A stretch of DNA of 63,495 bases, the filler included. It is 5 parts of 5 records of this genome, joined end to end, with 100 filler letters (N's around TTAATTAATTAA, not from the genome) between each part and the next. Parts side by side here need not be neighbours in the genome. Positions count along the whole stretch, not along the records: positions 21,296 to 39,654 come from SRR22947725_2414; 4 more parts are not named here. One strand, written 5' to 3'. A model generated the notes under the pieces. It was not told the origin of the DNA. It ran no database searches and worked only from the letters and a program-made list of their open reading frames with translations. Each line of letters begins with the position of its first letter. Position 1 is the first letter of the stretch. Both the position numbers and the translations under genes were made by a program. Of this stretch, positions 21,436-34,975 are shown one piece after another.

Positions 21436-21512
21436 TGCGGGGTGGAGCAGTCTGGTAGCTCGACGGGCTCATAACCCGTAGGTCGCGGGTTCAAATCCTG
21501 CCCCCGCTACCA
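21436..21512 (+). tRNA. metY: Initiator tRNA-fMet (CAT)
   Basis: 77 nt; anticodon arm ACGGG-CTCATAA-CCCGT with three G-C pairs; 1:72 mismatch; CCA end; upstream of rimP-nusA-infB. Confidence 0.95.
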
Positions 21513-30324: not shown

Positions 30325-30360
30325 AAAAACCCGAGTCGTGAAAGCGCCTCGGGTTTTTTT
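30325..30360. terminator. Bidirectional terminator between pnp and acs
   Basis: AAAAACCCGAG...CTCGGGTTTTTTT. Confidence 0.8.
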
Positions 30361-32302
30361 ATGCGTTTGTTTGTGGTGAGTTCGCGATGAGGTCGTCGAC
30401 AACGCTTGGGTCAGCCAAGGTACTGGTGTCCCCCAATTGCGTCAGTTCATTCTCAGCAATTTTGCGCAATATTCTACGCATGATTTTCCCAGACCTGGTT
30501 TTCGGGAGCATGGGTGCCCATTGCAGAATGTCGGGTTTAGCAATGGCGCCAATCTCTTGCCGAACAAGGTTTTCAAGTTCCCGCTTGAGGGTATCCGTCC
30601 CGTCGACGCCTTGCATTAAGGTGACGTAGGCATAGATCCCTTGGCCCTTTATGTTATGCGGATAACCGACGACGGCAGCCTCCGCGACCGCTTCATGCAG
30701 CACCAATGCGCTCTCAACTTCGGCTGTACCCATCCGGTGTCCCGAAACATTGAGCACATCGTCGACTCGTCCGGTAATCCAGTAGTACCCTGACTCATCT
30801 CGGCGAGCACCATCACCCGTAAAATAGTAGCCCGGATAGGTCGTATAGTAGGTATCAATGCAGCGCTGATGGTCCCCAAAAACTGTTCTGATTTGGCTTG
30901 GCCAGGAGCTGCGAATGGCTAGGTTGCCGGAGGTTGCACCACTCAGCACGTTTCCCTCTGGATCGAGTAAGACGGGCTCTACACCAAAAAACGGCAGGGT
31001 TGCGGATCCGGGTTTTAGATCCGTCACACCCGGCAAGGGTGTAATCATGATGCCGCCAGTTTCTGTTTGCCACCAAGTATCGACTATGGGACACCGGCCG
31101 TCACCGACAATATGGTAATACCACTCCCAAGCTTCTGGATTAATGGGCTCGCCAACCGAGCCCAGAATACGCAGACTCGAGCGGTTGGTTGCCTGCACAA
31201 ACTCGTTTCCCATGCCCATGAGGGCACGAAGTGCAGTCGGGGCTGTGTAAAAAATATTGACCTGATGCTTGTCAACGATTTGCCAGCATCGAGACGCATC
31301 AGGATAGTTCGGGATGCCTTCGAACATTAAGGTTGTCGCGCCATTCGCGAGAGGCCCGTACACGATATAGGTATGGCCTGTAACCCAACCAACATCCGCG
31401 GTGCACCAGTAAATATCGCCATCATGGTAGTCGAAGACGTAGCGATGCGTCATGGCCGCTTGCAATAAATAACCGCCTGTAGTGTGCAGTACGCCTTTCG
31501 GTTTTCCGGTTGAGCCCGAGGTGTAGAGGATGAACAAAGGATCTTCACTGTCCATTGGTTCGGCGGGGCAGCTTGGGGGTTGCAGGATAGTTTCATCGTT
31601 ATACCAGAGATCCCGTTCTGGTTGCATCGACACGAAGCCGCCAGTGTGCCGCACAACAATCACAGAATGCACGTTCGGGCACTGCTCAAGCGCCAGATCG
31701 GCGTTGACTTTAAGGGGGACTGTTTTACCGCCTCGCACGCCTTCATCAGCGGTGATCACTGTTTGGCAGTCAGAGTCTAAAATACGATCTTGCAGGGCTT
31801 GTGGTGAGAAGCCGCCAAATACGACGCTGTGAACAGCACCGATTCGAGCGCAGGCTAGCATGGCGTAGGCGGCCTCTGGAATCATTGGCATATAAAGGCA
31901 GACGCGATCGCCTTTTTTAACGCCTCGCTGAATTAAAAGGTTGGCCAGTTGGCAGACCCGTTGATGCAAGTCCTGATAGGTGATGATGGCCTGCTGGCTC
32001 GGATCATCACCCTCCCACAAGATTGCAGTTTGTTGGGCGCGCTCTGGAAGATGTCGGTCAACACAGTTATAGCATGCATTCAGTTTTCCGCCGATGAACC
32101 AACCGGCCGTGCCCGTCATTAGATTTGACTCGGTGAGCTGCTCCCAGGGTTTAGACCAAGTCAGGAATTCATTGGCCATCTCTGGCCAAAAGGTCTCGGG
32201 CGCGTTAATCGATTTTTGGTACAAATCCTGATACTGATCGATGGAGAGGTGGGCCCGTTGTTTGGCGTCGTCTGAAACCGGGTATTGTTTGTCGTTGGTC
32301 AT
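30359..32302 (-). CDS. acs: Acetyl-CoA synthetase
   Basis: [33 protein letters not shown]. Confidence 0.97.
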
Positions 32303-32406: not shown

Positions 32407-33663
32407 TTAGCTGTCCTTAAGCGGCGCGTCGGCTTTAGGCTGGGATTTTTTGGACTTCTGCGTTCGGCTACTCCGGGTCATGATCTGCTGCCGGTCCTCG
32501 TCAGCAGTTTGAAACTCTGTCCACCAGTCGCATAGTGCGCTGATATTTTCACCGCTATCACGTCGTAGTAGAAGGAAGTCGTAAGCCGCGCGGAAACGCT
32601 TATTGGCGATTAATCGCAAAGGTTTCTTTCCGCGTCGCGCTTCGAGTCGATCCTGGAGCAACCAGATCTCCCGGGCAGGGATACTAAAGCGTTTTGGGAT
32701 CGAAATAACGGCTTGTTGTTGGTGGAAGACCTGATCAGCCGCAACTGCCGCTGCATCGTTTCTTGAATAATCATCTTTTTCGATGAGCGCCTTTTTGAGA
32801 TTCTCAAAAGGTGCCCATAAGAGCGCAGCGAAGATGAATGCCGGGGTAACCGGCGAGCCAATGGCTATTCGATCGTCTGTTGATTTAAGTGCGAGCTGAA
32901 TAAGTGCCTCGGCCTGGCCTTCTTCTGCCATGGTCGGAAACAAAATAACGCTGATTTGATATTGGCATAAGGCAAGATAGGTCGATTGTGCAAATCCAGC
33001 CATGAAGAGCTTTAGGGTTTCTTCAAATAGCCTCGCCGGCGGTATTTCCCCCAAAAGATGCGCCAGATCAATGATCTTCTGTTCAAGGATTGGGGCTAAA
33101 TCGAATTTAAGTTTGGATTTGAAGCGAACGGCTCGGAGCATTCTAACTGGATCTTCTTTGAAACGTGTCGCGGGATCCCCAATCAACCTAAGTTGTTTGC
33201 TTGCGAGATCATTGAGACCTTGATCGGTGGGGTCTAAGACCCGCTCGTCGGTCGCGCAGTAGTAGAGCGCGTTAACGGTAAAGTCTCGGCGGAAGGCATC
33301 AGACTCGAAGGACCCAAAGACATTGTCGTCGAGTACATGTCCCGCATCGTTTGATTTTTGCTGATTGTGTTGGGCCCTAAAAGTCGAGACTTCAATGATC
33401 TCGCGCCCAAATCGCACATGAACAATCTGAAATCGTCGGCCGATAATCCGAGAATTCCTGAAAACTTTATGGACCTGCTGCGGGGTTGCATTCGTTGCAA
33501 CATCAAAATCTTTGGGTTTTAGGCCCAGCAAGAGGTCCCGTACGCAGCCGCCGACGAGGTAAGCCGTGAAGCCTTGCTCTGTTAGCCGAAGCACAACTTT
33601 GAGTGCCTCGAGGCTAATTTCCGAGCGGGGTAAGTGTTCAGCGCTATTTGATTTTTTGCCCAC
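32407..33663 (-). CDS. pcnB: Poly(A) polymerase I (start uncertain, GTG chosen)
   Basis: VGGCVRDLL, DFDVAT, IIGRRF, RRDFTVNAL, EDPVRMLRA, FRAAYDFL. Confidence 0.93.
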   Translation of the reverse strand: MGKKSNSAEHLPRSEISLEALKVVLRLTEQGFTAYLVGGCVRDLLLGLKPKDFDVATNATPQQVHKVFRNSRIIGRRFQIVHVRFGREIIEVSTFRAQHNQQKSNDAGHVLDDNVFGSFESDAFRRDFTVNALYYCATDERVLDPTDQGLNDLASKQLRLIGDPATRFKEDPVRMLRAVRFKSKLKFDLAPILEQKIIDLAHLLGEIPPARLFEETLKLFMAGFAQSTYLALCQYQISVILFPTMAEEGQAEALIQLALKSTDDRIAIGSPVTPAFIFAALLWAPFENLKKALIEKDDYSRNDAAAVAADQVFHQQQAVISIPKRFSIPAREIWLLQDRLEARRGKKPLRLIANKRFRAAYDFLLLRRDSGENISALCDWWTEFQTADEDRQQIMTRSSRTQKSKKSQPKADAPLKDS

Positions 33664-33730
33664 AGAATGTGTCTTAATCGCGTGGAGAGAGTGTAACAGA
33701 TCGCATGCTAGACAGCTCATTCGGATAGTT

Positions 33731-33764
33731 TAAAAAGAAAAGGGAAAGCCTAAGCTTTCCCTTT
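33731..33764 (-). terminator. Intrinsic terminator upstream of pcnB
   Basis: Minus strand AAAGGGAAAGC-TTAG-GCTTTCCCTTT then TCTTTTT. Confidence 0.85.
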
Positions 33765-33833
33765 AGCGAGCATGGTCTCTTTATTATTATTATTCTTGCT
33801 TGGTGCTTATTATTATTGTTGGCATCCAAGTGT
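33731..33833 (-). ncRNA. Putative mini CrcZ-like Hfq-binding sRNA
   Basis: Two (AAN)n tracts, a 5' hairpin, its own terminator, an upstream -24/-12 motif; lies between gluQ and pcnB. Confidence 0.6.
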
Positions 33834-33842
33834 CTTAACTAT

Positions 33843-33858
33843 CGCAGGATGCGAACCA
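33843..33858 (-). promoter_or_regulatory. Putative sigma54 (-24/-12) promoter
   Basis: TGG-TTCGCATCC-TGC: exact GG-N10-GC spacing, imperfect flanks. Confidence 0.55.
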
Positions 33859-34111
33859 TTTGGGAAGTCCCAATTTTGGCTGTGCGCAGGTCCAAAATTT
33901 GAAGAAGGTTAAGCCTCTATGCGGCGTCGGGTTTGATCAACGGCGGGCGGCGGCTGCGGGTTCGGTTTAGCAAGCAATAGGCTCGCCCTTCCAAGTTGCC
34001 GCGCCGCGGTCTAAAGGTCGGTTTCGCGCCGCGCGCGGACAACAGTTTGAATGGTTTACCCGTGGACGCGCAGCGCATCAACTCGGCCTGGCCGGCAAAG
34101 AGCCGTGATGA

Positions 34112-34975
34112 TTACTGCGTTTTTCCGATGAGTTTCGGGATGCGGTCAGTCCGCCAGTTTTTGATTGCAGCATCCAAAATTGTCTTTGGATTTTCCGAGG
34201 CGATGATCGGTTGGTTAAGAAAGGCCAAGGCCTGATTAAGGTTGCCGGCTGGGGTTTCGGCATTGATCCTAGGCGCATGAGCCTGTTTACTGAGCTTTTG
34301 GCCATCTCTGTCGAGGACCATCGGTAAGTGCAGGGTCTCTGGCGGTTGTGCCCCGAAGGCGCGGAATAAGCAATTTTGCATTGGGGTGGCGTTCAAGAGG
34401 TCAGCGCCTCTAACGATTCGAGTGACCTTTTGAGCAATATCATCGACGACAACAGCGAGTTGGTAAGCATGTAGGCCATCTTTTCTGTGGACAATAAAAT
34501 CACCAAAGTCTTGACCATAGGTCCAGGTAACAGCGCCTTGGGCAATATCTGTTTGCTGGATTGTTGTCTCGCGGACACGAAACCGTAAAGCAGCGGGTTG
34601 CTTGAAAGGCGGTCTTCGCGTCCGACAGGTTCCTGGGTAGAGTCCAAGATAAGCGCGCCTTGGACAGGTACAAGAATACAAGTGTCCTTTGGTCTGTAGC
34701 ATCGACAAGGCTTCATCAAAGCGGTGTAGTCTTTGGCTCTGATAGGACACTGGCTGATCTGAGACCAAGCTGTGATCGGCTAATTGTTTCAAAATCTGAC
34801 GATCTGCGCCGGGTAAGGATCTTGGCGGGTCTAGGTCTTCGACCCGGATAAGCCATTGTCCGTCAGCTGATTTTGCATCAAGATAACTGCCGAGCGCCGC
34901 AACTAAGGAGCCGAAGTGTAATGGGCCAGTGGGCGAGGGTGCGAACCGGCCAACGTAGCGTGGGTGGTCAGCCAC
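34112..34975 (-). CDS. gluQ: Glutamyl-Q tRNA(Asp) synthetase
   Basis: RFAPSPTGPLHFGSL, YQLAVVVDD, KLSKQ; no anticodon-binding domain; follows dksA. Confidence 0.95.
   Translation of the reverse strand: MADHPRYVGRFAPSPTGPLHFGSLVAALGSYLDAKSADGQWLIRVEDLDPPRSLPGADRQILKQLADHSLVSDQPVSYQSQRLHRFDEALSMLQTKGHLYSCTCPRRAYLGLYPGTCRTRRPPFKQPAALRFRVRETTIQQTDIAQGAVTWTYGQDFGDFIVHRKDGLHAYQLAVVVDDIAQKVTRIVRGADLLNATPMQNCLFRAFGAQPPETLHLPMVLDRDGQKLSKQAHAPRINAETPAGNLNQALAFLNQPIIASENPKTILDAAIKNWRTDRIPKLIGKTQ

Follow-up and report, generated by a model that had tools for sequence, protein, structure and literature searches.

A short CrcZ-type RNA gene upstream of pcnB in marine Pseudomonadales without detectable cbrAB, with an apparent change of promoter class

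Results

The subject of this report is a short putative non-coding RNA gene, related to crcZ of Pseudomonas, that lies between gluQ and pcnB in a 63,495-nucleotide stretch of DNA, hereafter the window, which consists of five parts joined by filler. The locus falls within the part taken from record SRR22947725_2414, and window coordinates are used throughout. Around the locus, genes are arranged in the order sfsA (+), aminotransferase (+), dksA (-), gluQ (-), the small RNA (sRNA) gene (-) and pcnB (-). This is the flanking synteny given in the original prediction, an earlier reading of the window from its letters alone, which had described a miniature CrcZ-like RNA at the position of crcZ in a setting from which cbrAB is missing.

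The RNA gene covers about 100 nucleotides (nt) of the minus strand, from position 33832 to position 33732, and comprises, in order, a hairpin, a tract of ARN triplets (A, purine, any nucleotide), a box and a terminator, followed by pcnB (Table 1). Each coordinate previously given for these sequence features proved correct on inspection. Several unpaired A-rich motifs, a trait of CrcZ, are present in the form of two sites containing five and six ARN triplets, respectively, as is a second such trait, namely, a Rho-independent 3' terminator, here with an 11-bp stem and a U-tail and supported by covariation. The core of the second ARN site, AAUAAUAAUAAA, is invariant or almost invariant over 10 sequences.

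Table 1. Features of the gluQ-pcnB region, listed in the direction of transcription of the sRNA gene.
Feature	Position	Strand	Basis or remark
gluQ (tRNA glutamyl-Q34 synthetase), upstream neighbor	34112..34975	-	NCBIfam NF004314, 332.7 bits versus a cut-off of 256
GC-rich spacer, slot of cbrA-cbrB or cbrB in relatives	33900..34111	-	No cbrA or cbrB remnant detectable (tblastn)
Dyad AATTTTGG-N12-CCAAAATT	33872..33899	-	Present in the sequence
-35-like hexamer TTCCCA	33861..33866	-	17 nt from the -10 hexamer; TTCC in 11/11 cbrAB-less and 0/4 cbrB-bearing sequences
TGG-N9-TGC, putative vestige of a sigma-54 -24/-12 promoter	33844..33858	-	Aligns with TGGCA[CT]-N5-ATGC of cbrB-bearing genus-mates
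TGCGATAGT, extended -10 (TGn + GATAGT), proposed working promoter	33838..33846	-	Invariant in 11/11 cbrAB-less sequences
5' hairpin CUUGG-A-UGC (33830-33822) / GCA-CCAAG (33806-33799)	33799..33830	-	5 + 3 bp, one bulged A; minimum free energy (MFE) fold
Hairpin loop CAACAAUAAUAAUAA, 15 nt, AAN-rich	33821-33807	-	Sequence
ARN site 1 AACAAUAAUAAUAAG, five ARN triplets, displayed in the 5' hairpin loop	33820-33806	-	MFE fold
ARN site 2 AAGAAUAAUAAUAAUAAA (AAG AAU AAU AAU AAU AAA), six triplets, 18 nt	33780..33797	-	Predicted single-stranded
Box CCAUGCUCGCU, lying 3' of ARN site 2 and abutting the terminator	33765..33775	-	Conserved in the genus
Intrinsic terminator, 11-bp stem, 4-nt UUAG loop (33764-33739), U-rich tail	33732..33764	-	Terminator scan and fold
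pcnB (poly(A) polymerase I)	32407..33720	-	TIGR01942, 469.8 bits; open reading frame (ORF) starts 11 nt past the terminator tail

A 116-nt stretch folds at -28.0 kcal/mol, as compared to -16.2 +/- 2.9 kcal/mol for 200 shuffled versions (z -4.0), none of which was as stable (0/200), while a 105-nt fold gave a z value of -4.87 relative to shuffled controls. Runs of five ARN triplets number 29 in the window, against 8.6 +/- 3.5 expected, with four of the 29 found at this locus. A 51-residue ORF (33674-33829) was considered as a possible small protein; this is unlikely, since in relatives the ORF is disrupted by RNA-internal indels of 1, 3 and 6 nt.

To address cbrAB, the 63-kb window was searched by tblastn, the queries being CbrB (six) and CbrA (five) proteins from relatives; nothing significant was obtained (best E value, 0.31). 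No match fell in the 212-nt spacer between gluQ and the sRNA gene, where a cbrA or cbrB pseudogene had been sought. Nor was either gene found in the genomes of the cbrAB-less relatives searched, such that the absence claimed earlier is upheld. The spacer is poorly conserved, close relatives included, and contains a 54-residue ORF (33917-34081, minus strand) that matched no NCBIfam family.

When the window was scanned against Rfam at gathering thresholds, the sole match was a tRNA gene (21436-21509, plus strand), with no match to CrcZ (RF01675; model length, 398; threshold, 95 bits). In a permissive scan with RF01675 (701-nt search), positions 33845-33724 matched model positions 264-380 of 398 with a score of 39.0 bits (E value, 9.4e-9), over part of the model and below threshold. 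The segment matched, the 3' third of the model, takes in the terminator together with the final A-rich hairpin and final A-rich linker before it. When relatives were searched, the element upstream of pcnB was the sole clear match in G001 (3.2e-7), G002 (8.6e-7) and G004 (5.1e-6); G005 gave an E value of 0.026 and G003 only a 13-bit match located elsewhere. None of these five genomes contained a match over threshold, and none of 14 control genomes contained a match at E <= 0.001. Across 151 genomes sampled from the order, seven of which gave a match over threshold, the lengths of the RF01675 matches ran continuously from ~80 to 400 nt. Because of this continuum, the window RNA appears, judging from sequence, to be the short end of one CrcZ lineage and not an isolated look-alike. 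One genome, G006, contained three RF01675 matches of ~206 nt.

Relatives were identified in a scan based on pcnB that gave 79 loci, with the nine closest being taken for a first comparison; in this and all synteny and partner-gene searches, the genomes of relatives stand proxy for the source genome. The sRNA element was present in all nine, with pcnB being 63-99% identical to that of the window. These nine are marine metagenome-assembled genomes (MAGs) titled 'Pseudomonadales' or 'Gammaproteobacteria' bacterium, with one more bearing the title Ca. Azotimanducaceae/HTCC2089, a family in the order Pseudomonadales according to NCBI taxonomy. This agrees with the assignment of the window, in the original prediction, to a gammaproteobacterium other than Pseudomonas. 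At 27 more distant loci, including those of Cellvibrionaceae, Porticoccaceae, Alteromonadaceae and the Thioglobus type, the region upstream of pcnB showed no comparable ARN tract and terminator.

Seven close sequences served to build a covariance model (R1), with which genomes around relative G001 were searched at the levels of order, family and genus. Fifteen genus sequences were then aligned to R1. In this alignment, 97.8% of the cells are paired, as compared to 80.9 +/- 1.6% in shuffles, 11 of the 19 pairs have changed on both sides, and the covariation score was reached in none of 500 shuffles, bearing out the covariation sought in the intergenic regions. In control alignments with slid partners, pairing dropped to 39-68% (maximum, 67.7%). 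All eight pairs of the 5' hairpin have changed on both sides, with its two helices being paired in 100% and 92.9% of the cells, while in the terminator stem 98.2% of the cells are paired and three pairs have changed on both sides.

The R1 searches also placed the locus in a graded series of gene orders. In the order sample, 8 of 151 genomes matched, with six of the matches lying directly upstream of pcnB. In each of these six, the sRNA is preceded by a canonical sigma-54 promoter (TGGCAC/T-N5-TGC) and by a gene encoding a response regulator/sigma-54 activator. Five present the order gluQ-cbrA (~990 residues)-cbrB (~470 residues)-sRNA-pcnB, and the sixth the order gluQ-cbrB-sRNA-pcnB. The former is the arrangement that the original prediction gave for Pseudomonas, seen directly here in the order-mates only. 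In the family sample, 25 of 151 genomes matched, contributing 23 new loci, all with pcnB downstream and with cbrB (18 loci), gluQ (three) or a contig end (two) on the upstream side. The family loci share a 3' box and terminator, CUGGCUCGCUGAAUGGGAAAAG..., the counterpart of CCAUGCUCGCUAAAGGGAAAGC in the window, with the family-wide box CUGGCUCGCUGAAUGGG adjoining the terminator of every CrcZ-like RNA at this level (L121-L141).

Within the genus, 14 of 19 genomes matched. Ten show gluQ-sRNA-pcnB, like the window, and four (G244, G302, G303 and G311) show cbrB-sRNA-pcnB. In the three of these whose upstream regions were examined (G244, G303 and G311; L189, L190 and L191), gluQ directly precedes cbrB, with no cbrA in between. 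Of the slot that defines crcZ, between cbrB and pcnB, the window shows the pcnB side; cbrB is absent here, but occupies its place in four genus-mates and 18 family-mates that carry the orthologous RNA. The pcnB of the 11 cbrAB-less sequences is 62-99% identical to that of the window, as opposed to 51-52% in the cbrB-bearing genus-mates. As such, a miniature RNA of CrcZ type at the crcZ position, as originally proposed, is borne out by the partial RF01675 match taken together with this series. The two-site, ~100-nt form is the norm of the genus whether or not cbrB is present; because the cbrB-bearing genus-mates already have it, miniaturization preceded the loss of cbrB.

Two further CrcZ-like RNAs were noted. 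In family member G280 (L125, ~1430-1560), the RNA is made up of three to four tandem modules of ~20 nt (CAAAGCAAUAAUAAGAAAAA), which suggests that this RNA grew by duplication of an ARN unit. In G123 (L104, G123:C160), an extra CrcZ-like RNA lies away from pcnB, beside an AcrB-family gene, and is preceded by a TGGCAC-N5-ATGC promoter.

The promoter region was compared across 15 genus sequences, anchored on a shared TGCG. In the four cbrB-bearing sequences, TGGCA[CT]-GAAnn-ATGC is present in 4/4 and hexamers of the sigma-70 type in 0/4, with the place of GATAGT being taken by GACACA, GACTTG, GGCACT or GAATTA. In the window, GG (33857-33856) and GC (33845-33844) are likewise found 10 nt apart, the pair that had been proposed as a sigma-54 promoter. 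Among the 11 cbrAB-less sequences, the window included, the -12 GC is retained in all, while the -24 GG is kept in just five, being replaced by GC in three and by AG, TT or TC in one each. The proposal thus holds in that GG-N10-GC is homologous to canonical sigma-54 promoters and that its GC half is conserved, and fails as regards the GG half. A CbrB-activated sigma-54 promoter, a hallmark of CrcZ, is accordingly not seen in this lineage, in which neither CbrB nor CbrA was found, be it in the window or in the cbrAB-less genus-mates.

What all 11 cbrAB-less sequences do share is TTCC[CA]N placed exactly 17 nt upstream of GATAGT, with TGC directly before the latter, giving TTCC-N19-TGCGATAGT. 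In the window, the 17-nt spacer holds TGG (33858-33856) and ends in TGC (33846-33844), with GATAGT following at 33843-33838; the eleven 5' positions of the spacer vary freely among the cbrAB-less sequences. Both window hexamers match the sigma-70 consensus at four of six positions and TGC abuts the -10 hexamer, such that the layout fits an extended -10 promoter of predicted activity. A generic promoter scan did not list this layout, as it requires 9 of 12 positions to match. It is thus most likely, on comparison of these sequences, that a sigma-54 promoter was converted to a sigma-70 extended -10 promoter in the cbrAB-less lineage, in which case the -24 GG of the window would be a real but eroding vestige of the former.

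Alternatively, the RNA could still be transcribed from the sigma-54 promoter under another enhancer-binding protein, such as NtrC, for which the dyad would be the site. GG-N10-GC, homologous as it is to the promoters of the cbrB-bearing genus-mates, speaks for such control, as does the existence of rpoN and an NtrC-type activator in relatives, and the start predicted near 33832 is common to both promoters, which is why 5'-end mapping alone cannot separate them. Yet GG has been replaced in six of the 11 cbrAB-less sequences that retain the RNA, the -24 block of the window reads TGGTTC and not TGGCAC, and searches of the window and of cbrAB-less relatives yielded no CbrB-like activator. The dyad offers little help. 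Its exact form is confined to the window and two near-identical relatives (L001/L118 and L003/L178), with other relatives presenting only loose TTGA..TCAA repeats at this place (six of ten sequences compared), and it lies ~40-70 nt upstream of the start, while typical sites of sigma-54 activators are found farther upstream. The earlier suggestion that the dyad is a regulator site was therefore not sustained, and it was rejected as a conserved hairpin or binding site, not being maintained beyond the three near-identical sequences. Continued sigma-54 control is, on balance, quite improbable.

Two cbrAB-less family members with gluQ directly upstream, L139 (G239) and L140 (G172), share an upstream motif, GTTTTGGCTTTTCG(A/C)TA, that fits neither the GG-N10-GC nor the TTCC/GATAGT layout and may reflect a second, independent rewiring. 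Separately, in cbrB-bearing L182, L185 and L122, the sigma-54 promoter is preceded by a AACTGATTGATTT-type tract, which we take to resemble a site for integration host factor (WATCAANNNNTTR); cbrAB-less sequences are without this tract.

Genes for possible partners of the RNA were sought in the genomes of relatives. The presence of hfq and rpoN was verified, hfq being found in 10/10 genus-mates searched and rpoN in 5/5 genomes, four times over the cut-off and once in a copy cut by a contig end. Each cbrAB-less genome gave one to three strong matches to sigma-54 activators; those of G002 are NtrC, encoded beside NtrB, and a flagellar-type pair, with no CbrB among them. When a CbrA protein from an order-mate served as query, only histidine-kinase cores (residues ~610-989) were matched in G001-G005 and in the cbrB-bearing genus-mates. 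In G244, G303 and G311, no CbrA fused to an SLC5 domain was found elsewhere in the genome, leaving the CbrB-type regulator an orphan.

The reference Crc, taken from a genome with a full-length CrcZ, was confirmed against PDB 4jg3 (E value, 6.5e-164). In seven cbrAB-less genus-mates (G001-G005, G181 and G267), this query returned either nothing or a protein only 28-30% identical to it, which in G001 and G003 is XthA according to NCBIfam; G004 and G181 gave the same kind of match. None of crc, cbrA and cbrB was found in the cbrAB-less genus-mates searched for each. The cbrB-bearing G244 also gave nothing with the Crc query; the six order-mates with cbrB beside the sRNA encode proteins that share 38-42% identity with Crc. 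Of the 151 genomes in the family sample, 81 encode a protein of the endonuclease/exonuclease/phosphatase (EEP) family that is 27-46% identical to Crc; as this may be Crc or a second exonuclease III, it was not used as evidence. Weak EEP matches in two cbrB-bearing family members (L152 and L153) belong to no informative NCBIfam family.

With the activator gone and the -24 element eroding, the RNA gene could be a functionless relic of crcZ, decaying since the loss of cbrB, a picture to which the loss of the A-rich loop of the 5' hairpin in two genus-mates, G309 and G003, would add. Stem pairs have, however, been preserved through compensatory changes, no variation is seen in ARN site 2, in the box or terminator, or in the new promoter hexamers across sequences where pcnB is only 62-68% identical to that of the window, and the stretch is found in the RNA libraries of many studies. 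Simple decay is hence very hard to credit.

The box CCAUGCUCGCU is the best conserved segment outside the A-rich parts and the terminator, being kept in the genus and, as CUGGCUCGCUGAAU, in the family, and it appears in a single-stranded or internal-loop context in folds. It could thus be the seed of a base-pairing sRNA, with the ARN tracts and U-tail acting only as anchors for Hfq. In enterobacterial class II Hfq-dependent sRNAs, such as ChiX and MgrR, the distal face of Hfq is served by an ARN motif and the proximal face by a terminator U-tail, a combination also present in the window RNA. The latter differs from these RNAs, which base pair via defined seeds, in having no relation to them in sequence or synteny. 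Moreover, the box abuts the terminator, where it may be a structural or processing site, and the Rfam CrcZ consensus has no equivalent of it in that segment. A base-pairing role is accordingly considered doubtful.

Hints of transcription came from sequencing runs, 13 of those recorded as RNA containing at least part of the stretch (19 rows of all kinds, from 14 studies). Four RNA runs from four studies were compared with the window in the form of assembled contigs. In one (X7), a 3.0-kb contig has one end beyond 32400, covers pcnB and the terminator, and stops in the sRNA gene at 33821; in a second (X8), a similar contig stops at 33815. Both contigs reach ~1.6 kb beyond 32400, into acs (acetate-CoA ligase; 30359-32302, minus strand; NF001208, 1060 bits), the gene that follows pcnB here, unlike in E. 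coli and Pseudomonas, where folK does so. The ends of the two contigs, 11-17 nt short of the predicted start, are a weak hint of a 5' end and of continuity into pcnB. The parts left uncovered in these runs, between ~33822 and 34213, were not taken as evidence of silence.

Because the pcnB ORF starts 11 nt past the terminator tail, there is no room behind the terminator for a separate pcnB promoter. Genus-mates also conserve the N-terminal extension of PcnB at the protein level, with matches starting at residues 1-4 in L178, L179 and L120. From these two observations, pcnB transcripts probably arise by read-through of the sRNA gene, which would then probably also serve as leader and attenuator of pcnB. 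One could go further and view the RNA as mainly a cis-acting pcnB leader or attenuator, in which Hfq bound to the ARN tracts sets read-through or pcnB translation. The same ORF position, the conserved extension and the contigs from two studies that run from pcnB through the terminator to 33815 or 33821 agree with this. On the other hand, contigs cannot show single transcripts, and the first ATG of pcnB is ACG in L004, making the true start codon uncertain. The RNA is also conserved in cbrB-bearing relatives, where pcnB lies farther from the terminator (~50-250 nt); the second copy in G123, beside the AcrB-type gene, even lies away from pcnB. A mainly cis-acting RNA is thus possible but rather less than probable, while as a second role such action is compatible with the CrcZ-type function favored below.

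Discussion

The most economical account, and one held to be probable though by no means assured, is that the window encodes an orthologue of CrcZ with the short, two-site architecture typical of its genus, as a non-coding RNA of ~100 nt running from ~33832 to ~33732 on the minus strand, under a rewired promoter. Sequence anatomy, the homology series, covariation, the promoter census and the presence or absence of partner genes in relatives make up the observed basis of this account. Hfq binding, proposed by analogy with CrcZ, decoy action, use of sigma-70 and read-through into pcnB are what it would entail.

From what is established for CrcZ and Hfq, contacts with the distal face of Hfq would be made by ARN tracts and those with the proximal face by a U-tail; six ARN triplets, or 18 nt, are what the distal face of one Hfq hexamer accommodates. 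The window RNA would accordingly offer Hfq two ARN tracts, one in the hairpin loop and the other as an 18-nt single-stranded run of six triplets, with the terminator U-tail available to the proximal face, and would by titration keep Hfq off A-rich target mRNAs. Since no Crc was found, none is presumed to take part. As for its history, cbrA would already have gone from the locus in the genus when cbrB was deleted in the lineage of the window. The sigma-54 promoter would have become one for sigma-70, with the -12 TGC being reused as the TG of the extended -10 element, a TTCC -35 element being gained and the -24 GG decaying. It would follow from such conversion that expression no longer answers to CbrB.

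Several points weigh against this account. The Rfam score is far under the gathering threshold, and an A-rich tract followed by a terminator is a low-complexity signal. The covariation alignment was fitted to the R1 structure, which favors pairing, although the margin is large nonetheless. The 11 cbrAB-less sequences probably belong to a single clade, such that the invariance of the sigma-70 hexamers may in part be shared ancestry, while the window itself keeps GG-N10-GC and so could still use sigma-54. The genomes standing in for the source genome are all MAGs of unknown completeness. Finally, in the RNA runs, one contig (X1; 33197-34897) covers everything between gluQ and pcnB and a second (X5; 33757-33970) crosses the promoter; contigs carry no strand, 5' or 3' end or abundance, and RNA libraries can contain DNA.

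Like CrcZ of Pseudomonas aeruginosa, Pseudomonas putida and Azotobacter vinelandii, the window RNA is the immediate upstream neighbor of pcnB and shares its orientation, occupying the place that comes after cbrB in relatives; it displays ARN motifs both in the loop of a hairpin and in an unpaired linker, and ends in a strong intrinsic terminator, with hfq being present in relatives of the window. CrcZ of Pseudomonas is, however, roughly 400 nt long with about six ARN sites, as opposed to ~100 nt and two sites here. Other differences include the lack of detected cbrA, cbrB and crc in the lineage of the window, a promoter resembling a sigma-70 extended -10 promoter in place of the sigma-54/CbrB type, the conserved box CCAUGCUCGCU, not found in the Rfam consensus, and the start of pcnB 11 nt past the terminator. 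Also close are the short CrcZ-like RNAs with sigma-54 promoters from cbrB-bearing representatives of the genus, family and order, with which the window RNA shares its length class, 3' box, terminator and position before pcnB, and, in the case of genus-mates G244, G302, G303 and G311, the two-site architecture. Unlike these relatives, with TGGCA[CT]-N5-ATGC and cbrB immediately upstream, the lineage of the window has neither an intact -24 element nor cbrB, and presents TTCC and GATAGT.

According to a 2022 review, descriptions of CbrAB and of the cbrA-cbrB-crcZ arrangement are confined to Pseudomonas and Azotobacter (PMC8871633), and the abstract of a second paper presents CbrAB as exclusive to pseudomonads (PMC6296734). 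No description of CrcZ outside Pseudomonas and Azotobacter was found in the literature searched, the nearest case being Acinetobacter baumannii sRNA99, called 'reminiscent' of CrcZ by its authors (PMC12802169). The window contributes a within-genus comparison, an apparent switch of promoter class, the lack of detected Crc and a pcnB gene that abuts on the RNA gene.

If correctly read, these findings go further than that literature, placing much shortened members of the CrcZ lineage in uncultured marine Pseudomonadales. Within the genus studied, the CrcZ-type RNA would outlast the loss of its activator, apparently without Crc, and because it persists in this manner, the core device, an ARN-rich Hfq ligand before pcnB, would be separable from the control layer specific to Pseudomonas. 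Sister species with and without cbrB, with the apparent conversion from sigma-54 to sigma-70 taking place on the same TGC, offer a compact and testable case of rewiring.

A bolder and distinctly tentative extension, rated as unlikely as it stands, would have one promoter yield two products. Here, the CrcZ-type decoy would also be the obligatory leader and attenuator of pcnB, with Hfq occupancy setting the level of PcnB and with the whole unit having been rewired from CbrB/sigma-54 to constitutive or sigma-70 control. Were this so, the window and the cbrB-bearing genus-mates would represent the states after and before a natural switch in promoter class, and CrcZ-type decoys could work without Crc. 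On a practical level, annotation pipelines that apply Rfam thresholds overlook RNAs of this kind, a consequence of modest weight.

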